A program made the translations under genes and the position numbers. A stretch of 58,079 bases of DNA, the filler included, from Sphacelaria rigidula (lineage: Eukaryota), in assembly GCA_964200075.2 (NCBI GenBank). It is 4 parts of 4 records of this genome, joined end to end, with 100 filler letters (N's around TTAATTAATTAA, not from the genome) between each part and the next. Parts side by side here need not be neighbours in the genome. Positions count along the whole stretch, not along the records: positions 43,636 to 58,079 come from CAXNAA020002239.1; 3 more parts are not named here. The stretch is one strand, 5' to 3'. The notes under the pieces were generated by a model. That model made no database searches. It had not been told where the DNA came from and saw only the letters and a program-made list of their open reading frames with translations. Within the stretch, counting starts at the first letter, position 1. Every line of letters begins with the position of its first letter. Below, piece by piece: positions 9,018 through 56,289 of this stretch.

Positions 9018-9821
9018 AAATCTACCCGTACGGTCGTTGCGTTGCGTCCAAGCAACCCCTAGGACCCCCTTAGCTGGCGGACGGCATATGCCACTTGCCG
9101 AAGAACAGGAGAGTGACGTAAACACACGCTTTTTCGTACATCTCTGCGCACCGTTATTGTAGGACATTGTTGAAAAGTACAGAGATCATTTCAATATGGT
9201 CTATTTTCAACGATATCTGTATTTCTGCCTTTAAGATGCAAACTATACGCCGCGCTCCAGAAGTTCGAGAAGCGCTTCGCAAGACCTGTTGGGGTGGAGT
9301 TGATGATTCGAATCCCAGCCCATGAGAGGTTTCTAGGAGTACCTGGCTTTCGCCGACGAGAACGTGAAGGCGTGATTAACGAAGATCTACGCAGCGCGGA
9401 GGTGCTGATCCTATCTGCGATGCCGAAATGTCAGGCGTGCACTTGGGGAGAGATGGTCTCATGAGACTGCAGACGGGTCCCGACGGACGGGGGCGACTTG
9501 AAGTATGGCGAAAAGAGGGAAACTGCGGAGGGATATGAGTTCGATAATCATGGTTCCTCTACCCACGAGCGCCACTAACTCTTGTGCATCATGATTTACT
9601 AGTAAGCGTTAACGGCATCAACTACACGTGACTTTTTCAGACGTTGCGGTTCGGAACAAACACACGCACAAACCACGTTGCAGAACTCGACATGGTCGGG
9701 CGTGCGCTTGTAATTCCTGGTTTGCCCCCCTTCCCTATACCCATGCAGGTGGTCGGGAATTCTTGCGTCGTGAAACTGGATCTGTGAGTAGGGGTGGACC
9801 GGACGAGGTGCGAAAGCTGTC

Positions 9822-9987
9822 GATTTGATTTGATTTGATTGATTCATGATTGTCGCACTTTAACTGACCCCCGAGGGATCCAGCCGTGGCCACATGATAG
9901 ACGAACCCGAGACAAAACAAAAATGAAACACGCTATGAAGAAAAAGAAGAAACGGAAGAGAGAGAACAGAACAGCATAGTAGATTAA
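9822..9987 (-). mobile_element. 5'-truncated RTE-type LINE 3' end with (AATC/AAATC)n tail
   Basis: Reverse complement GGCTGGATCCCTCGGGGGTCAGTTAAAGTGCGACAATC..(AATC)n matches the 3' end of the LINE at ~51750-51805. Confidence 0.75.
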
Positions 9988-14445: not shown

Positions 14446-14545
14446 NNNNNNNNNNNNNNNNNNNNNNNNNNNNNNNNNNNNNNNNNNNNTTAATTAATTA
14501 ANNNNNNNNNNNNNNNNNNNNNNNNNNNNNNNNNNNNNNNNNNNN
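14446..14545. other. Artificial contig spacer N44-TTAATTAATTAA-N44
   Basis: 100-bp gap with a 12-mer that gives stops in all six frames; identical at 28991 and 43536. Confidence 0.98.
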
Positions 14546-18822: not shown

Positions 18823-21800
18823 ATGGAGGCTTCTTCGGGTTATTACAGTGAGCAACTCAAGACTGTGCAGGTAATATATTGTCCACTTCATTGTCGTTGC
18901 GTGTATAAGTCATGACAAACTCCAATCTCTTCGATGAAGAACTATGCTATGCCTGTAGAGGCTGCTCGAACGTGGATCATGATCGCCGCGCATCATGTGC
19001 CTGTGAGACATGTTCAGCGGTGTGTGATACTGTACACATATTGGAACGCTTCTCACAAACCTCCGTGTGATGAACATGCGCGGACGTGCTGTCGTGCCTC
19101 AGTATTTTCGCGCGCGGGTGGGGACAAGATTCGACTGTTTGTTGTAGGGTTGGTTGACAGCGCAGCCTTTCCCGCGATAACAGCAGAGATGTCACGATCG
19201 AGCAGCCCAGAAGGAGCACATTGATGCGTAATATGTGCTGTAGTAACGATGACCGCGGACTCGCACCGAGTAAGAGGAAGGGTTGAAAGTGTAACGGGGA
19301 AAAAAAGTATGTCCCGTACTGATGGTGGCATACACGGCATACCACCAGCAATTGTGCTCGCTTTTCGTTTCGGGACACGCATGCGAAAAACATCCACGTC
19401 TTCTGCTATTCCGCTGTAATGTCATCGTAAGTTGCGACAGGAGGCCTCCGTTGTATCCCACCTCGCCGCCTCGTTGCTCCAATCTGCGTGGAGGTTGCGC
19501 CGAAAAAATGAAGTTGTTCAGCAACAGTTCAGTCCGCCGCTACGAGCACCAAGCGAAGGAGGAACACTCGCCCCTTCAGTACCCTCAACTTCAAGCTACG
19601 ACAATGTTGTTGCACGCCACGAGGATTGGAGACGCTCACCACGATTTCTGCTCGGAGACGCCGCGCGGAGGGTGCAGCTGTGGTGGAGAAACCACCTTCG
19701 GTGGAAGCAACGGAGTAGCACCCGCCGTTGTCGATTTTTTCCCGAAAATGGCTCGCTCTGTTCTCCAGCAAGCCAATTCCAAGTCAGCGAGGGTATACCG
19801 AACCGCGTGAGCAGATTATCGAAGTCCCCCTCTGGCAAATTTTCCTGTTCAAAAAAATACTCGCACCATCAAGTGAAGCGTGACGAGTCGCATCGGCCAT
19901 CCTTATCTTTGTCGCCGTCGCCGTCTGAAGATCCGGGTTCGGGGCCGCCAGTGAAGCCCGCCGTGGCACAACGACTGACAAAAGCAGAGGTTAGACGATG
20001 CCGCGATGCCGCCTCAACTTCGCCAGCGATGGAAACACTGTGGCTGAGAGAGAGCGAGGCTGCGGCGTTGCTAGACGCCATCGGTTTGCCTCTCAATCCT
20101 CACTGCAGTATCGACCTTCGTGAACGATCATCGCCACCCAAAATCAAACTCCCGCTTTCAGGCTCAGGGAGTCATAGCAAAGACGAGCGTCAGCGACGGC
20201 CGAGAGATTTCCAAACTATGTCTTCTCATCAGGGTTCGACTACCACAACCGGTAGTATAGCAGGCGCCGAAAATGAACGAACGAGTGGAACGGGTGGGGA
20301 AACAGCACCAGAGATAGACGAGTGCTTCGTCCATGTGGCGAGCGTCCTTTCCGAGGTGGCGACGCGGTCGTCGCTGTTGCCGCATGAATTATTGCCCCTT
20401 AATGCCACATATGGAAGACAGGCTCTCACTTACTTGAAACGGCTGGTTCGTGGACCGCGGGGTGGACTGCGCGTTCAGCAGTTGTTGTTGACGTGTTGTG
20501 ACACGAAGGTGATGGACTGGAAAGACGATCAGGTGAGGCCCACACGTGACATCATCAAAGAGAAGGGCAAGAGAGAGGGATCTACCGGGAGCGAAAAGTT
20601 GAAGAAGAAGCCGACATACTCACGTATCTCTTCGCCTCTCATCCCCTTGTTCGAGCGGAAATCATCATATCAACTCCTTCGTGCTCACCAACATCATGTT
20701 CATCCCCACGATGTATTCGTCCTGTCAAGTACCCTCAAGTTCATATGTTACGTATCGCCTAATCAACGGACGGCGATATGATTTTCTGCATGCAGGTTGG
20801 GAAGTTTTTGGTTGCGGCAGGTATGCCCGAGAATTCTAAAACGCAGCACCTGGCACCAACATCTGGATTCGATCTCTTGCAGCTGACCCTCGCAGCTTTG
20901 ATCTCAACGCAAATGATAACCCGCGGACACGATGACACCGTCAAGTTTTCATGTAGCGATATCTCTCTGGAGGAAACGTTTGACAGAAGCGTTGCAGGAG
21001 GCCAGCCAACTTTACTGCCACCCCAGAGCAAATTACTGCGGAAAGGATTGCTGGGCAGCGGAACCAAGCCGTCAGTGTTACGAAAAAGGCTGCTGTTCCA
21101 TTGTTCCACGGTGAGCTGGGTAGCAGTGTGGCAAGAAACTGGAGTGCTGCCAGAACCCATACGGGTGAACGCACCGGGATCAGAGGAGAGGAGAACCGGT
21201 TCGGCTGACACTCTCGAAGCTTCGCTGCGTCGCGTGCTCACGCGAGAGTTACAGAGAAGAGCTGCTCAACAGGTACGCGATGTGCGATCACCGAGGGGCG
21301 GCTTCGATTCTTCCCTCGGTAGTGGGACGGCCACACAGCAGACAGACGAGCTGTCTGCAGCTCCCTTAGTCTACAGCAACCCCCACATCTCACAGAACAC
21401 GTCATCACAAGACGAATATATCTCTAGCAATTCCGCTCGGCTACAGACCACAGCCCCGCCCAACGGCAACCATCAGATGGCAGTCGTTGTGAGTAATGGA
21501 AGCACGATAGTGGAACAGTCAGCCGTACTCCGAGAGCTTGTGCCGTCTCCTGAATCTCCCTCTGCCACCACCATCCTGATGGAGCATGGCACGGTTGTGC
21601 CCGGACCAACCGCCGATTCAGGCAGCATCGGTCCCGTATCGAGCGTAAGCACGCCCAACACTCCCGCACGGTCATACGCGACGAGGCGAGAACCACCGGT
21701 AGAGGGCGCTAGTGTCCGTGGCACTGGGCTTTTTTCGTGGAAACTGATAGCGAGCACAAATGGACGTCCTCCGCCCACATTTTCGGCATCTTACGTTGCC

Positions 21801-24218
21801 GATAGTGGACAGTTATTGTCGTCTTCACCACGACCAAGGACATCAACACCAGCCCATGGACGCGATTTCCAAGGGGGGGTGACTACTACCTGGTCCGCCA
21901 GTGCTTCTCCTACACCAGATATAGCTGCTGTTGCGCGCACGAATCCAGGTCCTCGTGCTGGACGTGCGTTTGCGGGTGAGAAACCGGTATCTATCCCACT
22001 TGATTACCACGAGCCGGCTGACGTCGTATCCATGACGATGAAAACGATGCGTTCCAGGACGGCACGACCTCTCTATCGCGAAGACGTGATGGGACTGGGG
22101 GGAGCCACACAAAGTGGGGGTGGTTGGCACGGAGAGGGGCGAGTCCTGGGTGCTCCACCTGTGTGTCAACCAAGCACCACTAATGGAACTACGCAGGTCG
22201 ACACCCTCCTATCGTCTCCTATTGTTAAACCCGACATGATTTCGCCACGGAGCTCACCGCCGAGAACAGCCGGAATTGCTAGAAGAAGCAAGCTTCCTGC
22301 TAGGGCGGAGACTCTGGCCTGGACGCATCCCGGAGCAAATCCCATCCGCTCAAACAGGAGTGCAGACGTACCGACAGAAGCGACCAGGAAGACTCACAAC
22401 AGCATCAGACGAGTGCATCGATATCGTCGTGTAGATGTACCGCTGCGGGCGGCAACTATCTACTTCGATCAATACCCGCCGCTGCCAATCCACAAAAATC
22501 GACCAAAACACGCGCGGGGGCAGGTGGGGACGCGTTTAGAAAATGGCTCTTCGCACCCTCCGCCTTGGCGCCCTGCCGGCACGTCGTCGCTCCCTGTTCC
22601 GCCACCGCCGGACGTAAGTAAAGGCCGGGAAAGCGAGGAAGGGAAAAAGCTCCGCGTTTTTCCCGACGATATTTTGGATCCCGATCGCAAGGTCTCTTCA
22701 GCCGATCAACTCTCGAGAGGTCCAAACTATGCACGTCGCGGGAGCGGAAGAGATGCCGGGGCCCGCCGCCGCCGTCCGCGGAGGTTGGGACGACAACAGC
22801 GTGTGGAGGGCGCAGTAAGAGCTGCTGCAGCTACCGCTGCGCCTGGCAGTGGTCGTGAACCGTCCGCGGGCAACGGTGAGGAGGAGCAGAGCGCATGGAG
22901 TCGCATACGAAAGCAAACCGCCCGTAGTATCAGGCGTTCCGGCAGGAATAATGATAATGATGATGACGACAGTGACGGTGAAGAAAATATGAGGAACGGG
23001 TCGTTATCGGACCACGAAAGAGACGGACCCTCCGGGAAACAACGGATGGCGGCATGGCATGAAATGGCCGGAGATCGTAGTCGAGCTGGTGTGATTCCGA
23101 GCGCTGTTGATGATAGTAACAGCAACAACATCCGGGGCACATCACCATCATCGGCGTTGTACGCGTTTGCGAAGAAGAGCAGGATCGCCTGGGACGACGT
23201 GACGCACGATAATCGGCATCTCGATGCCGCGCCGAACCGCACACGGTTTCTCAAAGCGACAGCATCGCCGCCGACCGACATCGGATCTTCGTCGGAAAAT
23301 GGCGGGTCGTCAGCACCGTTGATTTGGGGGAAGAATCATTGGCATGACGAGGAAGCCGTCGGACGACGCAGTGCGTCGGCGGGACGGCCAGGAAAGCGGA
23401 GGGGTGTGACGGCGGCGGGGTACCATTGGAGCGTAAAAGTGCCGGCTTCATCTTTGTCATCAAATTCGAGCAATGATGATGCGCAACTCTCGGCAAAGGA
23501 TCTGAATCAAATCATGGCCGGTGGCGACGTTACCGCACACGGTGAAGCTGAACGACCTCCTACTCCTCTTCAGTATGGGGTGTCCACACGCGATGTGTTT
23601 TGCGGTTCGGACAGGGGCATCGACAGAATGGCCCCAGCCGCGACCAACGCTTCCGGGAATGCGGACCTGTTGACGCCCAGGATCGGCTTGAACACGGATA
23701 CGTGGAAAGTTGACCGCCACGATGAAGAATCTACGAGCAGAAAAAGAATTGAGCAAGATCATGCACGAGCCACAACTACAGCACTGCTTGCTCAAGGGGA
23801 AGATGGGGGAGGAGGAGAAAACGCAATGTGTAAAACTCTACACGTCGCGGCGAGGGATAACATGGTCGGAAACGGTACAGCTATGGAGAGAGATACGAGA
23901 TCAGGCGAAGTGCGATTGGTCGATCGCTCTGCTACCGAAGAGCGTAAGGTTGGGTGGGCGATGGATGTCGCGCGTCGCTTGACAGGCAGTAAAGTGGGAG
24001 ATATCGTCACTTCTTTTCGGACAGAAAGTGATGCGTTGCTCCCCGTCGATATTGCCTGGGGGGATGGCGAGGATGAATTGGCCAACCGAGAGACGGAACC
24101 ATCTTCGGCTGTGGAATGGGATAGGACTGGATTGACCAGAAGAGGGCGGAAGCCGTCTTCTGTTGTCAACGACGCTAAAGCCTGGATGGACAAAGTGAAG
24201 GCAGGTTTGTGTTGGTAG
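18823..24218 (+). CDS. ~1,520-aa largely low-complexity protein with two IQ-like motifs (exons 18823-18870, 19441-20532, 20796-24218)
   Basis: Two long ORFs join in phase 0 (CAG|GTGAGG ... TGCAG|GTT). A putative first exon runs CCATGG..CAG|GTAATA. Motifs AASLLQSAWRLRRK and AARRVQLWWRNHLR. Confidence 0.8.
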
Positions 24219-28990: not shown

Positions 28991-29090
28991 NNNNNNNNNN
29001 NNNNNNNNNNNNNNNNNNNNNNNNNNNNNNNNNNTTAATTAATTAANNNNNNNNNNNNNNNNNNNNNNNNNNNNNNNNNNNNNNNNNNNN
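28991..29090. other. Artificial contig spacer
   Basis: N44-TTAATTAATTAA-N44. Confidence 0.98.
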
Positions 29091-29270
29091 CCTGGAGTAG
29101 GAGGGGGGGGGGGGGGTATAAACCGTTTTCCAGTCTGTAAGGCCCCTTGCAGCAGTAGGGCATTGTAGCGTCTGGGACACAGGGCATTGCAGCCGTTGGC
29201 CTCTCGCCCGGCAAGCTACACGCTACAAGTTGTACAAGCTACCACCTTTCCCCCCACACTATCTACCGCC

Positions 29271-31275
29271 GGGTTGACAACGTACTGTTTATTTCTGGAC
29301 GTGCTAAAGGCCTATGACACAGTATGGAGAAATGGACTGTGGAAACACTTGTAGGAAACTGGGATCAGAGGAAAGATGTGGAAAATGGTGAAGAAGATGA
29401 CAGAATGTGCCAAAAGTGTCATGATGCTAGACGGGAAACTGTCGAAATATTTTTATATTTTACAAGCCTGTACGAACCCCGGTGGCTCAGTCGGTTACCT
29501 CGAACCTGACGGTTGGGTCGCGGGTTCAAATCTCGGAGCGACCTGGGATTTTTTCTCCACCATGCCCAACAGTGGAGAGCGACTATGTCATGGGTACTCA
29601 AAATTCGACTCAACGGTCGACGAGGGGAAGGGACTGCTAAACGCCTCTCGCGATCAAAAATAAAGGCGAGCACCGCAGAAGGAAGGTGGAGTACTAAAAA
29701 CAAGCAAGAAAGAAAAAAACTCCTGTGTTGACCTTCCTCCTGTGTGACCCCGGCTGATGCGCCCACCTATACCGAAAGGTGTAGGCCGGCGTCCAGAATA
29801 GATGGGACAACACACACAAGGAGTTGCACACGGATGCACGTCATCACCCCCTTTATTCAAGGTGTTCATCAATGACTTGATACTCGCAACAGAAGCAACA
29901 AGGCAAGGAGTCAAGGTGAGTGAAGATGTGATATCAAGTTTGATGTTCGCAGATGATTTTGTGGGGATTTCAGGAACAGCAGAAGGATTGCAAAAACAGA
30001 TAGCCAAAGCGCTAGAAAACACCAGGAAATGGAGAGTGACAGCGAATGTTGACAAATGCACGGTACTCGTCTGTAACGAAGATGAGAAAAATCCGGTAGA
30101 GTTCAAATGGAAGTGAGGAGAAGAGGAACTGCCGATCGTAGACCAGTATATATACCTCGGCGTAGAGATGTCAAAACAGTGTTTTGGGGATGAAGAAATA
30201 AAAAAGGGTAAGGCACAGATAGGCAGGATGGACGTGATCCTCAGAGATTCGCACCTAGACACAAGGATGAAGAGATGTATCCTGATGATCGTGATTGTAC
30301 CAAAGCTGGGATATGCAGGGGAAGTATGAGAGGGGAACGTGAAATCGGTGAAAAAGTTAGAAACAGTACAGGTTGCAGCAGCTAAGAAGATACTTATATG
30401 CTCGAAAACGACGAGTAATACAGCACGGGGAGCAGAGTTGGGAATGTACTCACTTGAATCAAACAGAGACATGCGGAAATTGATATGGCAATATAGCGTA
30501 AAGAACATGCAGAGAAAGAGGTTGCCAGCTATAGTTGATAGGGCTGTACGAAAGAAAATGATGAAAGGGCATGCTAAAAGGTGGGATAGAGAAGTCGAGA
30601 AAGTATGGAAGGAGATGAGAGGAAACGAAGACGAAATACCGTCCATAAGTGAAGGCGCAGGGTACAAGACAAACAAGGAGAAAATGAGCGCTTAGACCCA
30701 AGGTAGACGAGGAAGAACAACACCTGAAGATATACTGGGGGTTAAGAGAGGGGATCGGAATGAAAATATATCTGCATGGCCCCATGGACGCGGCGAAAAA
30801 ATTGGAACTGCGATTTCGGGTGGGGACCTGGACCTGCCAAAAAGAAGATATAGATATACCAGTAAAATGGTCGAAAGGAGGAGAAGGGAGATAGACAGAG
30901 CTGCCTCTGTGGCAAAGCAATAGATAGCAGAAGCCATACAGTTGCAAAATGTGAATTGTGCAGGGAGGAACGGGACGTGCCATTGAGGGGGAAATGCGGG
31001 ACGTGAACGAAGGTGGCATGAAATCGTTTAATGCATGAGACAGTAGCGAGAAAACGATGTTTATACTAGAAAATAGATGGTGGCCACAGACTGCGAAACA
31101 GGACGGGGATGAGATATGTAGAAGGTTTTTGTGGAATTTATGGAAAAAACGTAATGAGCGCCGGAATGTTGGAGGTCTCTATTAGGAGTAAGAACGGTGC
31201 TCCGTCTAGAGAGGGATGCATGGTCAAGTGTCAAACGACTAAGGCAAGCAACAAATGAGTACGCCCCCCCCCCCC
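29271..31275 (+). mobile_element. 5'-truncated degenerate LINE (RT domain to 3' end; RTEX-like clade is an inference) with a C tail
   Basis: FLDVLKAYDTVWRNGLW, ILQ|GVAHGCTSSPPLFKVFINDL, LMFADDFVG, with stops and frameshifts. Ends ACAAATGAGTACG(C)12. Flanks CCCCCCACACTATCTACCG / CCCCCCATCATCTACCG. Confidence 0.92.
29467..29815 (+). mobile_element. tRNA-derived SINE (family 1) inserted in the LINE RT coding region
   Basis: A box TGGCTCAGTCGG, B box GGTTCAAATCT, (CA)n tail. TSD ACAAG at 29462-29466 and 29816-29820; removing the insert restores ILQGVA. Confidence 0.88.
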
Positions 31276-34203: not shown

Positions 34204-37200
34204 TTACCGTTGGAATTCCCCATCAAAACCGGTGAAGCCCGTCAATTGGAACATGGGAAAGAATGGCTTGGTGTTGAGGTGCGAACACCAATTCCATGCA
34301 GATGTCAGGCGACCGTCAATGCAACTGTTCAGTCAAAAGGCGACGGTGACAGACACGGGACGGGGAGAGAAAACGGGGGAAAAGGACACAGAATGATCGT
34401 GTTAACCCGACAAGTAACAACACAAGATCACAACACAAGGGGCGCTTCCACGGTTTGGAACGCCAGCGGGTTGCACGGGCATTGGTACTTGAGCAAGTAA
34501 ATCAACATACTCCAACTGAACAGTGAGTGGAGATGTAGAGAGGTAATGAGCCATGTACAACCACTTGAGGCAATTTGCCCTGTATGAAGGGCAACATAGC
34601 AGATTTCGTTCCGTGTGCCCGCACAGCGCATGCGCAGTAATGACATGGACCCCTACGTGGAGCACCCGCAACCTTCTGTTGCGAGGATCCGGTCCAAAAC
34701 AATCTCGCCAGTGTGTTGGGGTGACCATACCGGCTGGTCCCACGACGTACTTGGGCTAAAAAATGTCACCGGCGATTTTTCGCTCGGGCTCCGAGAATTG
34801 CGGCGTGAATTTTGGCGAGTGGTGCGGATTGACGATAGAAGACAAGACCTACTGATGGGGGAATTTTGCTTCCATTTGATATACTCAGGACTTGAGTCCA
34901 TGCAATCGAATTTCCGAAAAAATGTTCACCCTCATCTTAGAAAAAAGAAAAAAATGAAAATTCCTCTAGGCATGGTCTTCAAAAGGTAGACTCGCACCTC
35001 TTCTCAAAATTTCATGTCTCAACCCTCAAACTTCGAGCGAAAAATCCACGATTTGTGCGTGGATTCTCGGGGGCATTCGTCATTCGTACAGTACCTGGTG
35101 CTCTACATCAAAACGGAAAATGGCGCCCCAGCGCATGTTCGAGTGGAGGATGAAACGACTTTCAGCCCCGGATGAGGGAGCGGTGGGAGGATCGTAGATC
35201 ACCAGGCCAGGGTATGAATATTCTATTGGAGCGATACCTTGGGGGAATCATCATTCAACTGTATGAGAACCAAATGGTGCAAGGGTCGGACAAATAATGA
35301 TTCGTCTGAAAATTGCTTGGTTTTAGTATCGTGAGTCGACTCGTAACAAATCAATCCCTAGGCTATATTTCAGCGTTGCAACCTAGGTACACGCAGCCCC
35401 AACACGTGGAACGGCGCAAAAGTTGCGCGGATACCCCTTGGACCAGCGATCAACNNNNNNNNNNTTGGGCATTCAGGTCGAAGAGATCGTGAATTTGGTG
35501 ATTTCGAGTCATGATGATTTGTCCTAACCGTGAAATGGTGAAACACCCCCATCCGGGACTATGCGGGCATCTTTGGCGGTGAGATTCACCTTCACTCCAT
35601 CGCCGGTTGGGAGGCTATTTTTCACTTCCGGCATCGTTCGCGGTTCAATTTTTGCAACGTATCATTATCGTGATCAAAGACCGCCGTCCGTACGTTTTAG
35701 GCCAAGACGAGACGGTCGAAACCACCTCTCCGCAGTCACCGTATATACCTTCCCTCGGGAACGGCTGTGCTGCCGCACCATACACCTCCCGCCTCCGTTC
35801 AACTAGACTAATGTTTTCTCGACCTTATTTTGGAATGAAACGTATTACATTTTGGAGTCTCAATGCGTTTGGCAGGGTAGTGAACGCGGAAATCCGACAA
35901 GAGTGACCTACTTGATCGGGCATTGCCCCAAGGGTATCCCGCTCAAAGCAACCATGAAGGGCTGCGCAAATCCCACAGTAATACCGCATTCACACGTCAC
36001 CGACAAATGACACTACACTCACAACAAAACACAGTGGATATATTTTCTCGCGTACCCACTCGACAGAGTGATCAATTTCGAAAAAGAAAGACTCCGACAT
36101 CCTTTCTGCCGTGGCTGCCCAGTCGCTCGACACCTCCAAGTCTATCAAATATACACACCTGCCCGCATCGAAAAAGTTATCCGCCCCGCTGCCGTCGAAT
36201 GCCGAGCGGAAGAAGTCGAAGAGGATATCCTTCCTGAGCTTTTCCAGCCCCCCGTAACCCGTGTCAATGAGTGTCTTCAAGGAGGGGTCCTTTTCGTTGT
36301 TGTAGTGCTCTCCAAGCTGCTCTATGCACGACACAATGGGTCCAAGGATACGCGATACCTAGGGCAAACGGTGGCGAAGGTGGCAAAGGCTAAGTTGCAA
36401 ACATGATTACCCACAAAATGGGGGGTTAAAATAGCAGAAAAAAGCCCAGAGCGACTTCAAATAGCTGGCCACGTTCGACGCGTGACCCAATAGTGAAATA
36501 GTGGTGCAGGAAATCTTTTACACAAACCCTTTTGTCACATGACTGTTGCTTAGCTGTGGCCGGTGTTTTCAAAAGATGGGTACGGTATTGCCTAAGCGGT
36601 ACGAAAATGTACCTGGGTATACTTGTCGATGAACATCAGTGCATTGGGCACGTTGTGATCGCCAAGGTGGATTACGCTGCTTCCGACCCAGCTGTCCACC
36701 TCTCGCTGAGCATGGTACAATATCTCCTGCGACGGGTGGTCGGTGTGTGGTTCAAGTTGCCCGGAAACGACGAGATAGTCGGTGTAATGAGGTGCAATTG
36801 TGCTGCAACGAACATGAAAGGTGGGCGACAGCTGACGTGCCAAGCACGAGGTGCATACAGGCAGGCAGTCTAACATTGTTTCTGCCTTATGGTCACTGAC
36901 GAAATGGAATGTGGTACAATGCATATCTCAACGCCACATCAAGTGCATCTGGATATGGGGTTATTTGACGCTTGTCAAGCCGATGTTATTTGTGAACCGC
37001 ATATCTCACAACTCTTGAAAAACCTTCCGTGGTCGTCTGAGACCACAGACGAACAGAATTACTATATATATATTGAAACTTGTCCATATAACGACTCACC
37101 TGTATTCTGTGTGTAAACGGGCAATAATCGTGGGGTGAAAAATATGGGCAGGACGCACTATAATCTTCACCTATTCACGTGCGGTAGTATAACAGAGCAA

Positions 37201-43535: not shown

Positions 43536-43635
43536 NNNNNNNNNNNNNNNNNNNNNNNNNNNNNNNNNNNNNNNNNNNNTTAATTAATTAANNNNNNNNN
43601 NNNNNNNNNNNNNNNNNNNNNNNNNNNNNNNNNNN
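43536..43635. other. Artificial contig spacer
   Basis: N44-TTAATTAATTAA-N44. Confidence 0.98.
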
Positions 43636-44540: not shown

Positions 44541-47095
44541 CTGCACCTCAGTCACAGTACTAACTTTTAGACCAGATGGTGAACAGCTCTCCAAACAGAA
44601 GCGTTCTCAACGAGTGCCAGCAACGAAGAGTTGTGCTCGCCAACGCCCTAAAAAAAGCCGTGCACGCAAAATCCCTACGACCAACGGCAATGAATAGTGG
44701 CGGGGAAGTAGGCGGTAAAATAGCACGGGTTCAAGTCGTCAGTGCAGTATCTCCGTCGCAGACGCTGGTGCAGTGAGAGTACGTACTCATGTATGTACGC
44801 AGACGGTACTGTACAACGCACACTACCGTACATTTGGCAGTGATGCACTACTTACTCATTTTTGTTCGCGTTTGAAAGCCAGTATAATACTGTACTGTGT
44901 TAAATATCTTGCGCACACAACGGTGCTGTCTGCATTGTCAGTCCTTGATAGTGTCACCCTTTGAGTCATGCAGTCCCCACGTACTCCGTTGGTTTTCCAC
45001 CTGGTCGTGGCACTTAGCCGTGACCAAAACTTCAGCACTTCCACACTGCAGAATGAGAGTGCAGCATGGATAATTCCTTGAGAATCTATCGGCTGTGGGG
45101 TATTAATGTGAGGCGGTTTCGTTCAGGGGCAAGGCACCCATGTATCCTATCGTCATTAGAATAGCCCTCGTCCAGTGGGCGAGAAAGTGGTTCGCCGACA
45201 ACAAGAACGGGCACCGGTTTGCATGTGGACGTTCACACGAAGTAATTAGTGATGTTGACCTCCCAGCTGATAGGCAGAGGTCATTGCTTGTTCGTGTCTC
45301 AGCCAGGTGACGTGGTATACGACGAAGTGCCGACGGTGAACCACTCGGATTCGCCTTTGGGGAAATGTGACGTTGGCCGTACATTTTGGCTTCATTTATT
45401 TATCGATTTGCCGCTTACTGCCAATGGTGCATCTGGCTCTACTACAAGAAATGTAACGGAAACAAAACGAAACGGCGATGAACACCCACTCCCTGGATAC
45501 ACCTTCATTCGTGCTTCTGCGTCAGGAGCTCTTCCTATCCCGGCAGAATGTATCGTGTACTGTGTTGGTTCTACATCAGCACAACGAGAGTAGCTTCGCT
45601 GCGGGTAAATATCCACCCTGCCCTACGCCGTGTCTGCGCGAGCGGCGCTTGCGCCGAGGCTTGGGTGCTGGTCGAGTAGTACCAACTGGAAATATAGCGC
45701 GCCTGTATTTTTCTGGTCGTTAGCCTCCCTCCCCCTTTTTTTGCCCGTTCCGTGGTAACCACCGCGTTGACGCCTTTGATCGGCCTTCGAGGGTCTGAAT
45801 GTGGCTCCTCTCGGCGCGCAGTAGTACGAACAAAGGCTGCGATCCGGGGCAGTCGTGAAGCGTAAAAATTCTTCACGGGAGATGTCGCCGTTTTTTTTTT
45901 CACGGAGTCATGACATTTCCCGGTTTTTTGCTGAAATTTCAAATCGCTCTTAGCTTTCTGTTTGTCTTATTCTTGGCATCCCGTGAGATGTTGCGCGTAT
46001 TGATGATAAAAATGTCCGTTCGAAATTTCAGCGCCGTACTCCTCAAATTGAGCACCGCGTCACCCGGTTACCGACAAAAAACCACCGTCAGCTAACCTAG
46101 CTTGTACGTTGGACCGTTTTGGGCATGAGCAAAACACGTACTTTTGCGGAAGGGGGAAGAGACGGCCGCGAAGACCACCAGGACTATATTTACGGCGGTT
46201 TTGTGATGAAAATCGGAGTTCGACGGCCCCCTCGTACATGTCCTCAATCCACTGTTTTGGTGAGATGTTTGCGGGCTAGGAGGTAACCACGCGGCACCAC
46301 GTATTGGCCGTCGTTTACAGGGGTATCGCCATAGCACACAAAAAGTCGAAGCCGAGCAAGAATACTCCTTGGGTCACTGTAGACATGCTGGACGCAAGAT
46401 GGATGAGGGAGAGGAGTCGGTAGCCGAATGAATCAGCCTTCTTCGAGGATTCCGAACCCGCTATTGCAGGACGACCGGAAACTAGAAAATCCCGCGTGTA
46501 TGAGTGACTGTACTATATCCTTTTCTTTTTGTGCCTCTCTTTGCTGTCTTCCTGGCACAAGGGGGGAAGAAAGGGAGATGTCGCGCAGTTCTCGTGTTTG
46601 TTGCTCCCGCCTCGTCGTGACAGACCATACCACGTCGTCTTATCTCTATTTTGCTAGTGGATATTGTAATATGAGTGCGAAAATGTCTTTTCTTCGATCA
46701 CCTATGCTGTAGTTCGTCCAATCGAGTTCTCCCGTCAGCCCACCTCCGGTTTGTTGAACCTACTGTTGGGGTCGAGACTCTGTCGGCGAACGTATCCTCC
46801 GCTCCGCGTATGTGTTTGGGCGACCGGGCAACCAATCGGACGCGATTTGGATCCACCCCATCATTCTCATCATTAGGCTGGCACGTCTATCCCGCGAGCT
46901 ACCGCATCTATTTGCCCAAAATACAGTCGACAATTTATCTCCCCGCATGAACACGAGCCCACCTCGTTCGCCGGGTACTCCTATGGACACGTGGACAGGG
47001 CAGGCCGTTATGATCGTCCCACGTTGCTCTGGGAGATAGATGGCGATTGCGCAGGTTTATCTGATTCTCGCTTTTTTTTTTACTTCGATAGTTAG

Positions 47096-50000
47096 GGCGT
47101 GTACCAGAGCCTAGCGCCAGAGGGCTTCATGCTTCGGGCAGTAGTCAGCTACGGCTTCTAGACGTTCTGCCAGGGCGAAAGCGGTGCGCTGGGAGATTCC
47201 CTCAGCTCGAGAAGTTGGTGATCAATTACCCACTTCCAAAACGCGACGTCTCCGTGGAGTTCCCAACCTAGTCTTACTCGTGTTCGGTGTTTTCGTTTTC
47301 CTCCGAGTAGTATAATCATCAACTCCTGCTCCCTGACCACCGTCCGACTGGGGATGGCTGTGTCGAGAAAAACTAACCCCAACCAGCGATCACGACACAG
47401 CACACGCGTAGAAGGGAGGGACATGAACTATACACTGGTCTGTGTCCGGTGTCAGCGTGATGCAGCACACGAGCTACTTAGTGAGCCATGTCGACGGTGT
47501 CGAACTCTGGGCTCCACCCTGCAGCTGCTGAGTTTTATCCGGCACTGGGACCCAAACTTAACCCCGCAGCTGCTGAGTTTTGTCCGAAGTTGAGGCACTG
47601 CCACGGAAAACATGTTGGTGGCGATGAGATATTTGTGAGTACGAGCCAGATTCTGCGGACTGGAGCTAGCGGCCGACGCGAGTTGGAAAGGCTGCGCCCT
47701 TACCGCGAGACCAAGACGCAAGGCAAGTACCATGACCGACGTGCCAACGAAAATCGGAACAGAAAAACAGTCGCGCGTAAGATTAGAAGAAGAAATAGAC
47801 CCGAAAGGACGGTGGAACAAAGAGGGAAACGTGTAAATATAGTTGAGCCAAGGGATAGATCGCATATAAGGGAAGCTAAAGGTGGCCACCTACAACGTCC
47901 ATACACTGTCCCTCACGGGAAAGAACGGGGTTGGCCATGCTGGGGTGATTCTGTAAAAGTGTTCAGCGACGGGATGTGACATCATCGGACCGCAGGAAAC
48001 GAGGAGACCGGGCCGAACTGAGTTGCTGCCGCAGGAGGCCGTGTCTTTCGATGCAGAGCGAAGGGGGGCAAGGGGACGGAAGGTGTAGGCAATATGAGGT
48101 CGGGATGGCGGTCAAGGAGTCGGTCACCAATAAGGCGACGTGAACTCAGGTGCTCATCAGCGAACTTCTTATGTCGATGACTTTCAACGTCGCAGGCAAA
48201 TCGAGCGCTGCACCTTTGTAGTTGCCTATGCCCACACGGAGACAACAGAGAAAAGAGATATATATCCTCTGGAATGAGTTGGACAACACTGTGAACCGAG
48301 TTCCTGTCAAACAGCACTTGTTGATTTCGATGAATGCTACCGCTAGGACTGGGGTAAGAACAGGAGAGAACGACAGTAAAATGGTGGAGGCGTACGGCCG
48401 GGACTCCCGAACCAACGACGAGGATGGGTAGTACACATATGCTATCCGGACAGCAAGGAGATTCCTTTGCTACAATTTGTGGGTGACAATAGGCATGCCT
48501 TGGTCAACACGTTTTTTCCCACCCCCAAGGGAGGCATATCGCGTACGTTCAACGGTATTGCGGATCGTCCCGCGGACAAAAAATGCGTTTACTCCATCCT
48601 CACACGGCAAGATCACTGCACGCTTGTTTTCAATGTCACCGTCCACCTTCAACCACCCAACTTGCCGGACTCTGCTTGCAAGACCGTATTCGCCTCAGTA
48701 CGGCTCCTCGGTCGCTTCGAATCGAAAAACCTTGGCGAATGGCAACTGGGCGCAAACCGATCGACAGCCGGGCAATAATATCTAACACCGATAGGCGCGA
48801 GCAACTCACCCAGCTTATCATCAGCGAGCTTAAGCAGTTAACTTTTATACTGTTGGTGTGCTGGCGGCGAACTTCGCTGACATGTTCCTGAGCTCCGCTG
48901 AGGAGGTGATGCCCCGTCAGATCCGAAAGCCACGTATGCTGGAGTGGTTCAAGGATGCTGCCATCCGAATGGAGTTCGAATAGGCCTGGGATGAGAGGGA
49001 ACAGACGAGGTCGACGGTGCGACTGGGACCTAGAGATAACTCTGCATGACACACATTTGGAGCAGCGTGCAGGAAGCTCAAAGGGGTGACGCACGCTGGG
49101 GTGGACAGGTACCTGGAGGTGCATGCCAAGGTACTCGAAGGGTATGTTAGAATTGGGGACATGCGAGGATGGTATAGACACCTGAAAGGAGGGTGGAATC
49201 TGGCGGGTTGGTACTTAGAGAGCGAGTGATGCATTGAGGACGAGGACGGGAACCTACTGCTGGACAAAGGCTCAATCTATGAGAGATGGGGACGGTACTC
49301 CTCCACCTTGCTAGTTGCTATATATCGGTAAGTACTGAGCGAGCCGTCATGCGGAACATCGCGCAATGACCGACAGCGTTGCCACTTGGAGACCCGCCGA
49401 GCCCAAGTGAAACTGAGGAGGCCCTGAGAGCAATGGCAACGGCGAAGCGACGGGTCTAGATGGTCTACCGGCTGAACTCCTCAAGCTTGGATTGATCGGG
49501 GAGCCTTCGGAAATTATTCACCACTTCCACAGCGTCATCGCTGCGGTCTGGACGTCTGGCGAGGTGCCGCAGGAGTGTAAATATGCCACCATCAAGTGCT
49601 GCACAAGGAAAAGGGTAGGGCCGGGTGTGGTAACTACAGGAACATCTCTCTCGTGGCAATGTCTGGCGAAGTTCTCCTCAAGACCGTAGCCAGCAGGCTC
49701 GATAGTTTCTGCGAGGCGGCAGGGATGTTTCCGGAAGAGCAGCGCCGATGCAGGTGCCAACGATTGACCACCACGATGTTTGTGGCACGCCGATTACAGG
49801 AGTCGGGACAGACGGTCACACTGTCCTACTAAACACGTGCTTCATCGAGCCGCAGAAGGCCTTCGATACCGTAGACGGCACGCTCCTGTGGCGAGTGCTT
49901 GCCCGGTTCGTAGTCCCGCCGCGAATGATCACGGTCATCCGTAAGTTTGACGATGACATGGAAACTATCAGCGTTGTCCCACGGCGCCGCCGGACTCAGA

Positions 50001-51810
50001 CAAGGATGCGCTTCGCCCCCACTAGTGTTCAACATCTTCCGCGCAGCCCTGGTTCACGTGATACTACAACAGTTCGCGGCAGACTCAGCCATCATCACAG
50101 ACTTGATATATTTAGATGATACGCCAAAAGGTAATGATTGTGAAGTCCGGGAAGAGATGCTGCTGAAGAAGGTGCGGTGTGCGCGCGTCGCGGGCAATGC
50201 TGTATGTGGACGGCGCTGGAGTTGTGTCGAGGCCCGGTGACGGGCTTGCTAGTACGATGTCCGTGGTAGGGGTGACCTGTCAGGAGTTCGGATTGACGGT
50301 ATCGGGGGGCAAGAAAGAGTCCATGCGCCTGTGGTCAGTACCAGCTCCGCGGAGACCGCCCTGCACATCAGCGCGGCAGGCCAATGGTATAAGCAGACGG
50401 CAGAGCTTACCTACCTTTGTGATGCTGTCAGTCCGGATGCGAACATGTTCATCGAAATCAATTGCCGCATTTGCGCTTCGTGCACACGCCTCCGGCATGG
50501 TTCCCAATTCTATGGTCGGCCCAACGCCCAGCTATCTCTGAAACTCTGGCTGCTTGAAGCATGAGCGGTGGAAGCTATGCTGCACGGATGTGCTACATGG
50601 ACGCTACGTTCCGAGGACTTCAAGAGTCTGCGCGTTGCCCACCACAAGCTACTGCTGCGAATGATCGGATTCCCCAGGACAGAGCCAACCGACTCCAAGA
50701 CTCTTGCGTATAGAGATATGCTCAAGATGACCAACTGAGAACGTAGTAAAACGGCCACCCGCAAGCGATAACTCTGGTTCGTGGGGGGCCTTGTCCGGCA
50801 GGACAACACAGGTATTCCAAAACGTCATGCTCGGACGATCAGCTGCACAAGAGCCCATGGAGGATGGGCGCCCCCCGAAATATTGGGGGAACAACTACCA
50901 GAAGAAAATGCGAGCCCTGGGGGCCACTCCGCACAAAGGACCACGACGTAAATGGTCCGTCCATGGTGTAGAGGTTAACGAGGCACACGAGTGGGTCACT
51001 GCGGCGAACAAAAAGGGCAAATGGCATCGTGCAGTCGAGAAGGACTCGCGAGAGTTCGAGGACACTGATGGAAGGTACACGCGAATCGGACCTCCGCCAC
51101 AAGCGAGAGGCTGCTGCGTCGAGAGCTACCCATTGGAGAGCTGCTACCGCTAACACAACAACAGCCAAATCTCGCGAGGAATCCGTGATGAAAATGGCCG
51201 CGAGAATGTCACGATTTGTACCCGACTAGGGATGAGTGGCGGAAGCTGAATTCACACGGAAACTGATGTACCCTGTATTTTCCTATTGGTTGTTGACTTT
51301 GTCCTTCGTGGGTGCTCTTGCGGTGTTCCCTGGTTGTGCGTGTGTACCTGCTCTACTGTGTTCTTGGGTCTCATTGCTGCCGTTGTTTCCTTCCTCTTTG
51401 CTCCCTCCTTCTCTCCATCTGTCTCTCGTTCCTCCCCGATATGTGTGTCGCAGTTCAGTGTCTCGCTTTCGAAGGGCTCATGAGAGAGAGTTCAAACCCA
51501 ATAGAGTGTGGCGGAAATAGCTGAGCCGCAATCGGTTCCCTCGGCTTTTAATTTCTTTTGGTATTGTATAGATTTCTGCCTTTTGGTTTATAAGTGCATG
51601 CGCTTGTTTTTGCGCAAGACCTTGTTCAGTCTTATTCTCTGTCTCCTCAGTTCACTCTGTCTGTTCCCATCTTTCTGCTTCCTTCGCTTATTTTTTCACG
51701 AGCGAGCGTTTCCCTTTTATTTTACCTCGAGTATATCTATCTTGTTACCGCAGCTGGCTCCCCCGGGGATCAGTTAATGTGCGACAATCGATAATCAATC
51801 AATCACACAA
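47096..51810 (+). mobile_element. Apparently full-length but degenerate RTE-clade LINE (APE endonuclease + RT, long 3' UTR, (AATC)n tail)
   Basis: APE motifs VATYNVHTL, DIIGPQETRR, FVVAYAHTE, NATARTG, LVNTFF. RT motifs KATGLDGLPAELLK, NYRNISL, QKAFDTVD, GLRQGC..PLVFNIF, MLYVDGAG. Many stops and frameshifts. Candidate TSD ATAGTTAG at 47088-47095 and 51811-51818. Confidence 0.92.
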
Positions 51811-51938
51811 ATAGTTAGCATCGCCGTTCAACGCAGCAACACCTTGATATGACGCCTTAACCGTACCTCATATGTTCGGGAACCGCGAACACTCCACTAC
51901 TGCGAATGCTGCATCACAAGTGTGACCCTTCCCACAGA

Positions 51939-54900
51939 ATGGCTCGTACCGCTGTTCGTTCTGCTGCTACTGCTATTGTACGTTGGCTGCCTGTTGTGCC
52001 TACTGTAATCCATATCACCAAATCAGTCAATGGAAGGAATACCGATTGGGCGGACGTTGCGTAGCAAGCCGCATTGGCGAGGCTTGCAGGCCACCACCAC
52101 ATCGCCATCGAGCCTTGGCCTCGAGTCTCGGCACGAAGAGAAGCAGAACCCTGCATCAAGTAGCCCGGCGAGCGGTCGTGGAGAAGAATGGGCCTACCGC
52201 ACAGGTTTTGTGTGTGTTTGTGTATGAGGGGGGTGTTTGCATGTAGTCGAGATCCCGCCCACTCGCCCGATAAGCCTTGTTGAATTATATTTGTAATATC
52301 GCGATGGACGATATCATGGCCTTGAGCGTGGGATGGGCATCGTTCACATGATAGTATGCTGCAGAGGATGTGGATCGGCCCGCGAGGAATGTGTGCGAGG
52401 CGGGGGGAATGCTCTCCGCGCGCGCGTCTGTGTATCAACTCCCCCCTCGAAGGAGTCCCCGCTTGAATATCACGGGCCTTCTCGTGAGAGAAGAACACGC
52501 CGCGATGCAGTTGGATACAGGAAAACATACTCCCAAATTTATGTTGATATCACTTCGCTGTCGAAGGGCATTGCAACGCTATTCCGCGTGAGGTTATTGT
52601 AAAATCATCCTCATGCCCTCTTCTCGCACAACGAGATAAAGCTCGAAAAACTCACAGTCAAGCTCTTCCTGCCCATTGAAAAAATCTCACTTCTTGTACT
52701 GCGAGCAATCGACTCTCTTGATGAAACTCTGACGCGCCACTATGACCAGCGCGTGTGTACGACACGGTCCCAATTAAATAATCACAGACTGTACCTCTTG
52801 ACTTGGTCAAACTAAATCAACTACGGTTCGACCGTGCAACACATATTGCCAACTGCGGGGGAGGCTCCAGGGTTTAGGTTAGCGACCGATTACTCGAGTG
52901 CCGTATCCGTCGTTGTCCACGCCGTGAAAAACGTCCCTTCTGGTTCACGTATTTCCGTCGTTTAAGGGTCCAGATGCCGGTTTGGAGGATGCACGTGGAA
53001 GGATCACTGACGGTGACGACGAAGAGGGCGACGAGAGTGCTCTAGATTCCAAACATAAGGGTGGTTCATTGCTGGAGACGGAGAGGGCCCTGCGGGATGG
53101 GCTTGCCGCGTGGGAAGAATTGGGAGAAGGGCTGACCGGGGTACGTTTGTGTGTGGTCCGTCGCTGTTTATTTCTGACGGTGCAGGGTTGACCGATATGA
53201 CCAATACGACCAATGCTTCTATGAAATTGAAAGTGTAGGATACGATCGAGCGTGAGAAGTGATCATTTAATGAATTACATATTTTCAGTTCCGAAATACC
53301 CCTCCGCGTCTTATATAGCTTTTTGTAGAAGCTCGCCACTGAAAGGCTTTGATATCCCTGAGTAGGATATCGATGTGTACCTGTCAGCAGACGACAATGT
53401 TAGAGGCAAAGAAAAACATCCACAAAATAAAAAGATGTTCAACTTAGGCTTCATGATAAAACTCACTAGTGCCGGTCGTCCCGGTGGCTCAGTTGTTGAC
53501 CCCGAAAACTTCTGACGGTTGGGTCGTGGGTTCGAATCTCTCGAGTGACCTAGGATTTTTTATCACACAATGCCTAACAGTGGAGAGCGACTATGTCGTG
53601 GGTACACAAAATTGGATTCAACGGTCGACGAGGGAAAGGGATTGCTGACCTCCTCTCGCGATAAAATATAAAGGCAAGCACCGCAGAAGGAAGGTGGAAA
53701 ATTAAGATCAAATAAAAAGTAAAAACTACTGCGTTGACCTCCCTCCTGTGTGACCCCGGCTGGTGTGCCCACATATACCGAAAGGTGTAGACCGACGTCC
53801 AGAACGAATCGGATGACAATACACACACCCTCTCTCTCTCTCGATCAACGCAAGACTCTCTATCTCACGAAAGCACTGTTTACAGCAGGACGCACGACCG
53901 CCGCGCAGTGGTATACCAACAAGAGAACATGTTTATTCAAGACACAAAATGTTTTTATTGGACGTACCCACAACTCATGAGCACGGCAACACCCGAAAGG
54001 TACTGACACCTGCACAGCTATAGGATACTTCTCCCTCATGATTCTGCGTCGATATCCTGGTATCCCGATATCTTTCGCCACTCACCATTCGATGTGAGGT
54101 GAAGCAGATCACTTCGACACACACTCTCCCGTGTTTCCACTCAGCATCAACGAACTGACGAACCGCCGACAACACTACACTACTAGGAGCTGAAAGAGAA
54201 AACCTGGGCCCGTCGCGAAAACAAAATTTCCAGCCGCGTATTAACGCCGCAAACTGAACTACTGAGCAATCGGAAAATCAGAACCTGAATTCCCTCCTCA
54301 ACGTCACACGCATCGATCCTTAGTCGTTTGACCATTGACCACGCATCCCTTTCGAGACGGAGCACCGAGGGGGGGGGGGGGGGGGGGTCTTAGTCACAAA
54401 AGTGGCATGAACATCACTCACTGTCCAACGGCAAGCAGCGGCAGGTCAGCGGTGACATGAACACCACTCGAAGCCCAACGGCGAGCAGTGACACTCCAGC
54501 GGTTCCAGGGCAGGCATTGCCCAACAGCCGGGTCCTCAGCAGATTTCGAGGTCCAGTGAAGCAAAACGCTATTTTGCTGTAATGATTCTGGTACGCACTG
54601 CTCTGCTGTCTGTACATGTGATACTATAATACTCGGTACTGCGTAGTCACCCTTGTTGTGCTTTAGCTTGCCTCACCGTATCGACTTTCCTGCGATGCGG
54701 GTGCGGAGTGAACAACGTGGCTCCAGCGACTGTCTGCGTGCTAAGTTGACAGATAACGTGACTCTGGGATTATTCCCAGTCGTTTAGTAGAGAATAACTG
54801 TGCAGTGTATCGTGTGTTGGCTGCCAATCCCGAAAATCGGACCGGATGTGTGTGTGTTGTCACCCCATTTATTCTAGACGTCAGCTTACACCTTTCGGTA

Positions 54901-56289
54901 TATGTGGGCGCATGAGCCGTGTTGCAGTCCTCTATTTTGCTGTAATGACTCTGATGCTCTACTGCTGCTCTGCTGTCTGTACATGATTCATGCCATGTTG
55001 ACACCCCACTCTTGAAAACCACGCGGGTGCAAGCACCCGACAGTAAGATTACAGAGCGTTTCACAGCAATGCACCACGCTTGTTCGTCACACCATTGTAG
55101 ACATCACGTTTTTGTTCCAGCGCGTAAAAATTGCTGTGCATGGGTGTAGTGCGTCGTATCGGCAGTGTCTATGGGGTTTTGAGATTCTGTGGGTAGACAT
55201 AGAACTCGACCGTTAGTCACGGATCATGTTTTGCCCTGCTTCTGCGGGAAGATAGAGAGGGGGGACAGTTCTCTCCTCTTCAGTCCGAGCGTCTAGTGTA
55301 AAATCATGTTCCGAAAATGATCATTTTTTATTTGGATAAAGTATGGGAAAAGCGGACGCAAATATACTGATTTGGGTGTCCAGCGGCGAGACATTTACGT
55401 ACGCTAATAATAATTTGATGCGGCAGATCTGGGCTCCGCATGAACGCAACCTGCAATCACTCTGTGTCGAACACAGGTGCACAATGTGTACATCCAACTT
55501 GATTTATTTATTGATTGATTGTCGCACTTTAACTGACCCCCCAGGGGTCCAGCTGTGGTCTCATGATAGACGTACTCAAGAAAAACGGAATTCAAACACG
55601 CTCTAAGGAAAAACGTACATACACAATAATAGATGCGCAATATTTGACACCAGTCGCAGGCTTCAAATCCTGTTTTCGACTGCTCTCCCTTGTTTCCCAA
55701 GGACTTCAAGGCACCTCTCCGTATTGTATGCTTGGTCTGTTTCGACAATCATTGCAGTTGTCCCTCGTAGCACCGATATTTATATCAAGATATCAAACAA
55801 AAATCGAGTGTTCACTACTCGAGGACTGTCGAACTAGCTCACCTCCGAATGCCGAGGAAATGTTTTCCCAACTACTCAAGCGGCACTGTCCACTATACGT
55901 GGTAACAAAGTACATTGCAAAATGACAGTAATGAAGACCCGTTGACCTGCGCATCAATGGGCCGTCATACACCCTTCATCCCACGTCATTTACCGTTCTA
56001 CTAAAGAATGATCGGGCACCAGTTGGTATGTAACCCCGGACATGTTTACAAGGTGTACAGCTTCAGTACGTTGGTTCTGGGTTGCAAATTCTGAGTATCA
56101 TTCTTAACAAAAGGTCCGAGCTTGTACGTCGGAATACCGCCTCTCTACGCATACTTTCGGGAACGTTCCTCAGGAACGGATATCCTTCATTTCTGTGATT
56201 GTCCACTCCGTCGCCAGACTTTTGGCGTTTTCTTTTGATAGGGGCAGGCTCGCAAGTGTCCCCACCTCCCGCGACCCTTCACAATAGAA
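51939..56289 (+). CDS. Putative 5' exons of an unknown gene (51939-51977, 52090-52204, 52974-53140, 56242-56289)
   Basis: Canonical AG/GT boundaries with compatible phases; acidic exon DAGLEDARGRITDGDDEEGDE..; no recognisable domain; frame of the first two exons is ambiguous. Confidence 0.45.
53480..53828 (+). mobile_element. tRNA-derived SINE family 1 copy
   Basis: TGGCTCAGTTG.., GGTTCGAATCT, body colinear with ~29477-29815, (CA)n tail. Confidence 0.88.
54318..54387 (-). mobile_element. Type B C-tailed LINE 3' fragment next to a G19 run
   Basis: CCTTAGTCGTTTGACCATTGACCACGCATCCCTTTCGAGACGGAGCACC closely matches the reverse complement of ~31196-31243. Confidence 0.75.
54569..54985. repeat. 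~50-bp direct repeat (54569-54618, 54932-54985) flanking a SINE family 1 3' fragment (54838-54911, minus)
   Basis: CTATTTTGCTGTAATGA..CTGCTCTGCTGTCTGTACATG occurs twice; ACACCTTTCGGTATATGTGGGCGC is the inverted SINE tail region. Confidence 0.6.
55499..55612 (-). mobile_element. RTE-type LINE 3' stub
   Basis: TTGATTGATTGTCGCACTTTAACTGACCCCCCAGGGGTCCAGCTGTGG nearly identical to ~9839-9890. Confidence 0.75.

Follow-up and report, generated by a model that had tools for sequence, protein, structure and literature searches.

The window analyzed here, i.e., the whole 58,079-nucleotide stretch of Sphacelaria rigidula DNA, carries at positions 47416–51806 (plus strand) a full-length but dead copy of a long interspersed nuclear element (LINE) with RTE-like features. 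The single open reading frame (ORF) of this element encodes an APE endonuclease and a reverse transcriptase (RT), and its product begins with two tandem motifs of the PAM2 type, the first of them imperfect in this copy, followed by a strongly basic stretch. The seven positions that define PAM2 proved to be identical in the consensus of the window family and in that of a sister family with signs of recent amplification. Altogether, these observations suggest that the LINE protein may dock on its own mRNA via the host's poly(A)-binding protein (PABP).

PAM2-Like Motifs at the Start of the LINE Protein

The sequence-only reading of this DNA had proposed that the first ORF of the LINE starts with two PAM2 motifs. 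The translation of 47488–47976 (+) is as quoted there: a Met at 47488, SGLHPAAAEFYP, three residues, PKLNPAAAEFCP, and then an Arg/Lys-rich stretch. The motifs were evaluated according to the definition in which position 3 is hydrophobic (usually Leu), 4 is Asn or Ser, 5 is Pro or Val, 7 is Ala, 9 is preferably Glu, 10 is Phe, and 12 is Pro (PMC2854688; this and the other papers are cited here from excerpts). The same source describes Ala7 and Phe10 as invariant, Phe10 as the most important residue for binding, and Pro12 as usual. In the form of the strict pattern [LFP][NS][PV].A..F.P, the motif occurs once when all six frames of the window (116,154 codons) are read, where the composition predicts 0.05 matches, and this single occurrence is motif 2 (PKLNPAAAEFCP, 47551–47586, +), in which every defining position fits. 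Motif 1 (SGLHPAAAEFYP, 47506–47541, +) fails at position 4 only, having His in place of the Asn that is the majority residue of the family (13 of 19 sequences). When position 4 was left free, three matches appeared in the six frames of the window, two of them being motifs 1 and 2. No further strict match was found elsewhere in the window or in the long relatives described below. By expectation, each residue contributes about 4e-7 matches to the strict pattern, which amounts to 1.5e-5 per 35-residue N-terminus.

Both motifs lie within a 45-nt tandem duplication (47497–47541 and 47542–47586). The two units are identical at 24 of their last 26 nt and at only 5 of the first 19 nt; this split suggests that the duplication was partial or recent, or that the motif core underwent conversion.

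Motif 2 is followed by the basic spacer that leads to the endonuclease (47587–47868, +). It has a His/Cys-containing start and then runs of Arg and Lys, and it is conserved and collinear with the corresponding region of the sister family. The Arg/Lys-rich stretch noted by the sequence-only reading thus exists: 27 of its approximately 93 residues are Lys or Arg (29%) and its isoelectric point is 11.6, as compared with 13% Lys plus Arg in the APE domain of the sister-family protein P0033. In general, the stretch after PAM2 contains 29–35% Lys plus Arg and 13–19% hydrophobic residues, with the motif placed at the extreme N-terminus. Such a stretch may serve in RNA binding or, equally, as a nuclear import signal.

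The single frameshift placed by the same reading before the endonuclease was also found. The KVATYNVHTL frame, with which the endonuclease starts, opens at 47870, 1 base off the N-terminal frame, and one 1-nt indel near 47866–47870 (+) splits the two readings. Since three related fragments (P0001, P0002, and P0013) read straight through this point, the frameshift is private to the window copy. Location of PAM2 in a separate upstream ORF was considered and rejected, the motif being in frame with APE in the three fragments and in six proteins of the sister family.

Relatives of the Window Copy

The N-terminus of the LINE protein (residues 1–131) was compared exhaustively with 1.84 billion representative proteins using HMMER (E values up to 1e-3). 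Among the 25 matches, 22 were homologues of the window N-terminus (62–256 aa), two were repeat junk, and one (P0022) was unrelated. The majority consensus of the family contains two complete PAM2 matches, and P0001, P0002, and P0013 run in frame from the basic stretch into the endonuclease. PAM2 was also the Pfam family most frequently recognized among the sequences found (6/23). The gathering score of the Pfam model (PF07145, 20 bits) was reached by two of the 20 members scanned, namely, P0010 (20.6 bits, motif 1) and P0004 (20.0 bits, motif 2); P0008 came close with 19.7 bits for motif 1, and further sequences scored 17.7 and 16.7 bits.

Neither single-sequence nor alignment queries found the window-family N-terminus in proteins longer than 256 aa, and the family seems to survive only as wrecks. 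In three of the 22 homologues (P0004, P0005, and P0015), the first 86–106 residues are joined directly to the end of the 3′ untranslated region (UTR), corresponding to window positions 47488–47751 plus 51660–51791. These are internal-deletion derivatives, and the LINE may thus have a short head-plus-tail form that is non-autonomous. The unrelated P0022 (256 aa) contains a tandem array of seven strict PAM2 repeats (PF07145, 64.7 bits), so multi-PAM2 arrays do occur among the searched proteins.

Searches in other collections added little. The ESM Atlas returned only unnamed eukaryotic clusters and generic APE–RT clusters. At the DNA level, a metagenome scan for relatives gave one distant RT fragment (L001, 34% identity), viral contigs gave no match, and prokaryote genomes gave one irrelevant match (L002). 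The Pfam model of MLLE, the PABP domain to which PAM2 motifs bind (PF00658), had no match in the one genome scanned and in 14 control genomes.

The Sister Family and Conservation of the Motif between the Families

Long relatives were reached when the endonuclease part of P0001 was used as the query among longer proteins. The 16 matches (452–1163 aa) are mostly 54–63% identical to the query in the endonuclease (one 65%) and form a sister family. Its longest member, P0026 (1163 aa, one frame), has Exo_endo_phos at residues 87–338 (48.7 bits) and RVT_1 at residues 652–931 (106.8 bits). P0026 represents 2648 sequences at 90% identity, which indicates that the sister family was recently amplified.

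In six of the 16 proteins (P0027, P0033, P0034, P0035, P0036, and P0041), the sequence opens with Met-Gly-FKLNPDAVEFFP or something very similar. They have a single PAM2 at residues 3–14 (4–15 in P0035, due to one extra Met), and the same frame continues across the basic stretch and the endonuclease. P0035 (663 aa) extends from the PAM2 start to the N-terminus of the RT region, and it is almost identical to P0026 where the two overlap. Hence, the relatives bear out the proposal of a single open frame for PAM2, the basic stretch, APE, and RT: the three window-family fragments read into APE, and P0035 reads into the RT region. The remaining ten proteins start further down, several of them at positions where the longer ones have Val, and, judging from the protein sequences, they are probably alternative start calls or copies broken upstream. 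The sister N-termini are collinear with those of the window family, and the single sister PAM2 falls on motif 2. The motif was thus retained in place and in frame in younger copies, whereas its absence from them or a break of the frame would, according to the sequence-only reading, have refuted the proposal. The younger family has one PAM2, not two.

The consensus 12-mers of the two families, PKLNPAAAEFYP in the window family and FKLNPDAVEFFP in the sister family, were then compared. All seven PAM2-defining positions are identical (7/7), in contrast to one of the five free positions and 39 of the 85 remaining positions of the extension (46%). The chance that seven random columns of the extension would all be identical is 0.005 by permutation, and the same mask placed elsewhere in the extension gave 7/7 in none of the 73 placements. 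For the defining versus the free positions, the Fisher test gave p = 0.01. The free positions of PAM2 are those exposed to the solvent (PMC2854688). We consider this comparison of consensuses the best argument that the residues were kept for a PAM2 function. The comparison of motif residues with their neighbors that the sequence-only reading had suggested showed better conservation of the motif between the families and not within the window family.

Structure of the Window Copy, Its 3′ End, and Its Classification

The copy starts with a 5′ untranslated leader of at least 47416–47487 (+), its minimum extent being set by the upstream-extended relatives P0024 and P0019, which align from 47416 and 47464. 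Two in-frame stops directly precede the ATG of the single ORF (47488–47490, +), and a Met is present in 14 of the 18 family members that have a residue at this column. Downstream of the PAM2 motifs and the basic spacer, the decayed APE domain was mapped to 47870–48718 (+) via tblastn of P0026 residues 82–351. The RT domain, also decayed and with several frame switches, occupies 49608–50415 (+) according to tblastn mapping of the P0026 RVT_1 domain; one window piece within it (49929–50237) gave a weak RVT_1 match of its own (16.5 bits). The C-terminal region of the ORF (50416–51153, +) is marked by the alignment of P0026 residues 1062–1146 to 50806–51060, with the frame ending at 51150 and the stop at 51151–51153. 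The extent of decay is illustrated by the alignment of the whole P0026, which covers 47671–51060 in a dozen pieces alternating among all three frames. Owing to this decay, hardly any Pfam match was obtained when the copy was searched in pieces from stop to stop.

The 3′ UTR (51154–51789, +) is common to two 5′-truncated copies of the same LINE family in the window, both on the minus strand. One of them (55475–55650, repeat D6) consists of the 3′ UTR end with an (AATC/AAAT)n tail, and the other (9806–9918) is a 3′-end fragment with an (AATC/AAATC)n tail. The full-length copy ends with a microsatellite-like (AATC)n tail without poly(A) at 51790–51806 (+), as established by the alignment of the three copies and the consensus of loose ends. 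No second full copy of the LINE is present in the window, and no target-site duplication was found around the window copy, the sole shared word being a 7-mer.

The borders of the repeated part were further supported by contigs of four public runs aligned to 47000–52000, with the reservation that the depth obtained in this way is not a copy number. The depth was 71–80 in the flanks and from 420 to 43,372 over the LINE. The repeated part starts within the bin 47334–47500 (depth 420) and ends near 51790–51842, beyond which the depth returns to the flank level. In run X1, there were 2465 pieces on 47000–52000, with 1756 of them less than 90% alike. The depth climbs towards the 3′ end of the LINE, which is the usual picture of 5′-truncated LINE copies. 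Loose ends at 51789 had the consensus (AATC)n in 61 records of run X1 and 55 of run X4. Runs X6 and X7, which may be of RNA, cover the flank as well and are therefore silent on expression.

The RTE clade label of the element is provisional, as it is based on the single APE plus RT ORF and the tail. RTE elements are about 3.2–3.5 kb in size, and their ORFs begin close to the endonuclease; they are not known to have a separate ORF1. The algal LINE likewise has a single ORF with an N-terminal APE plus RT and no separate ORF1 (P0026, and P0035 in frame from PAM2). It shares one APE plus RT ORF and a microsatellite-like 3′ end with Bov-B, plant and animal RTEs, and the Saccharina elements RTE-1/2/3 and RTEX-1. 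It differs in having 115–130 extra residues before the endonuclease and a length of about 4.4 kb. Ends with microsatellite-like repeats are described for LINEs of the RTE clade (PMC6007223), but they are common to other stringent-type clades and hence not specific. Young and abundant RTE and RTEX families have been reported in brown algae (PMC4421812).

Other Features of the Window

The window is rich in interspersed repeats. Pfam gave no match (E up to 0.01) for an open frame of 1151 codons (20763–24215, +), in which Ser, Pro, Arg, and Gly are abundant and most of the sequence seems to be of low complexity. The neighboring frame of 453 codons (19420–20778) is likewise without a Pfam match. 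A weak RT-like match at 29265–29465 (+), with 31% identity to P0026 residues 722–789 (E 3e-4), is probably a fragment of another retroelement. Runs of N are located at 14446–14545, 28991–29090, 35455–35464, and 43536–43635 (274 N in all), and several of them adjoin the repeat families D3 and D7.

A Proposed Role of the PAM2-Like Start and Its Alternatives

The retained motif raised the hypothesis that the PAM2-type start of the LINE protein binds the MLLE domain of the host cytoplasmic PABP and so tethers the protein to its own mRNA. The N-terminal PAM2 would leave the ribosome first and could grip PABP on the tail of the mRNA under translation. The roughly 1200-residue protein would then be held on its own transcript, which would favor formation of the ribonucleoprotein particle and cis-preference without an ORF1 protein. 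In the window family, the two motifs, located 15 residues apart, might engage two neighboring PABPs and gain extra avidity. Reverse transcription would start at the 3′ (AAUC)n repeats, not in poly(A). Tethering is the most economical reading because the N-terminus is the first part to leave the ribosome. The partner system is probably present in the host, since ataxin-2 orthologues have been reported from brown algae, and from stramenopiles their usual multi-domain architecture including PAM2 (PMC12898128). We lean towards this tethering role with a confidence a little above even.

Several results weigh against tethering. The main difficulty lies in the 3′ end: the three window copies terminate in AATC/AAATC repeats with no poly(A), and such (AATC)n ends of the DNA copies leave no place for PABP at the site of priming, in contrast to L1. 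Polyadenylation of the LINE transcript is assumed in the proposed mechanism. The Pfam scan suggested by the sequence-only reading gave a mixed answer, the two window-family members at the cut-off standing beside motif 2 of the window itself with 16.1 bits (E 0.0089), below the gathering score, and beside the sister proteins, three of which scored 15.8, 14.8, and 11.6 bits and three gave no match, so that none of the six reached it. The strict pattern is present in four of the six sister proteins that have the N-terminus; a defining residue was lost in the other two, position 10 being Leu in P0027 and position 5 being Ser in P0041. The sister family is known from called proteins alone, the start codons of which may be GTG or TTG. 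Within the window family, the motif columns have a majority share of 0.43–0.86, no better than their neighbors (up to 0.94). Neutral decay of dead copies gives just such a pattern, and the within-family alignment is therefore silent on selection. As its columns are uninformative, the argument for selection relies on one between-family comparison of ORF fragments. Nor are the two motifs independent evidence, since the recent 45-nt duplication of DNA implies one invention that was then doubled. Finally, the AlphaFold2 model of P0033 (24-row alignment) had a mean pLDDT of 35.3 with even the endonuclease unfolded, and it is silent on disorder of the N-terminus.

The sequence evidence that speaks for tethering speaks in the same way for a motif that binds PABP in the service of translation or stability of the mRNA, or that blocks MLLE against host PAM2 proteins recruiting deadenylases or silencing factors, with no part in cis-preference. 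Factors with opposite effects, among them PAN3 and Tob, use MLLE as a common platform (PMC2854688), and protection from deadenylation by PABPC docking is raised in the paper on L1 (PMC7617806). The (AATC)n tail, which leaves poly(A) unused for priming, also makes a template-positioning role weaker. The present evidence does not separate this service to the mRNA from tethering. However, one protein per mRNA would compete poorly for so abundant a platform, except by acting in cis only, which is tethering again, and we consider such a service unlikely.

The likeness to PAM2 might also be coincidental. The N-terminal 115–130 residues would then form another domain, for nucleic-acid binding, nuclear import, or multimerization, with LNPxAxEFxP kept for that function. 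Most of the Pfam scores below the cut-off are in line with this, and so is the 46% conservation of the whole extension between the families, which includes His/Cys and Arg-rich blocks unrelated to PAM2. Moreover, the likeness is one of sequence, and neither the first 40 residues nor the family profile matched any PDB sequence at E up to 10. Coincidence fits poorly with the strict pattern being expected about 1.5e-5 times per N-terminus of 35 residues, with two copies reaching the curated Pfam threshold, and with the identity of the seven MLLE-contacting or defining positions between families in which four of the five solvent-exposed ones differ. We regard it as improbable. Still less credible, in our opinion, is that the head stems from the exon of some host PAM2 protein, the beginning of which was acquired at the 5′ end and is now either functionless or kept because its DNA serves as an internal promoter or leader. 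Its location at the extreme 5′ end of the LINE, where LINE promoters sit, would suit such an origin, as would P0004, P0005, and P0015, which keep just the head joined to the 3′ UTR tail. However, the head is in frame with APE–RT from a conserved ATG in two families, and the pattern of identical and changed residues tracks the protein motif, not simply the DNA. Capture would explain the origin of the motif, not its retention.

Comparison with Known Systems

Docking of a LINE protein on PABP is known from human L1, in which the PIE element of ORF2p docks PABPC1; mutation of PIE abolishes activity and co-localization, and binding to RRM1 is predicted (PMC7617806, 2025). The authors propose that cis-preference is set co-translationally (PMC7617806), and PIE is also mentioned in bioRxiv 10.1101/2025.10.09.680815. 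Both systems would have an endonuclease/RT protein with its own short PABP-docking element early in the protein. PIE is situated after the endonuclease (residues 272–297, the linker between the endonuclease and RT) and is predicted to contact RRM1, whereas the algal LINE has PAM2, a motif of the MLLE ligand type, before the endonuclease (PMC7617806 for L1). An element in the endonuclease–RT linker contacting RRM1 is thus not what the algal motif represents. In addition, L1 has ORF1p and primes in poly(A), in contrast to the one ORF and the (AATC)n tail of the algal LINE. Judging by the sequences, the algal PAM2 resembles PIE at most in outcome, not in structure; no homology is implied, and the resemblance would be convergence.

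With the cellular PAM2 proteins Paip2, eRF3, ataxin-2, Tob, and PAN3 (PMC2854688), and with LARP4, the LINE protein shares the 12-residue motif with Leu3, Asn4, Pro5, Ala7, Glu9, Phe10, and Pro12. Those proteins regulate translation and the decay of mRNA in the host, and their binding is proven, unlike that of the algal motif, known from its sequence. A pair of motifs is also present in eRF3, in which two N-terminal PAM2 sites raise the affinity (PMC2854688). The sites of eRF3 overlap and share one Phe, and those of the algal LINE are separate, 15 residues from start to start. In Leishmania eIF4E4, PAM2 is likewise placed in an N-terminal extension, where it binds PABP1 and links the protein to the PABP-bound 3′ end of mRNA, but that protein is a host translation factor bridging cap and tail, not an enzyme of a mobile element (PMC6379680).

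The sequence-only reading knew of no precedent for such a motif in RTE elements. In this respect, the full-text literature searches found no report of PAM2 or of another MLLE ligand in a retrotransposon protein, subscription papers and Repbase/Dfam notes being outside their scope; the broader idea of a LINE protein docking on PABP has been anticipated by PIE. New in comparison with L1 PIE are another clade, another motif, another PABP domain, and a LINE without ORF1, the docking itself being known for L1 since 2025.

A wider proposal is that PABP docking is a general need of endonuclease-type LINEs that was met at least twice independently, by PIE on RRM1 in L1 and by an ORF1-less algal lineage that copied the canonical host PAM2 to the start of its protein and later doubled it. 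While still emerging from the ribosome, the protein would capture one or two MLLE domains on the tail of its own mRNA, providing cis-preference without ORF1 despite the (AAUC)n priming. We put this forward tentatively and think it rather doubtful as a whole.

How a LINE protein finds its own RNA is an old question, hardly addressed for elements without ORF1. The motif with which this LINE protein begins is a textbook one in host proteins, its partner, structure, and knock-out residue (Phe10) all being known, and this makes the question directly testable. Should binding to MLLE prove absent, the finding would be reduced to a conserved N-terminal extension in an algal LINE family. If it does act as proposed, PABP capture would have evolved more than once in LINEs and by different means, the other case being L1 PIE, and retrotransposons would join the users of short-linear-motif mimicry at the PABP platform.

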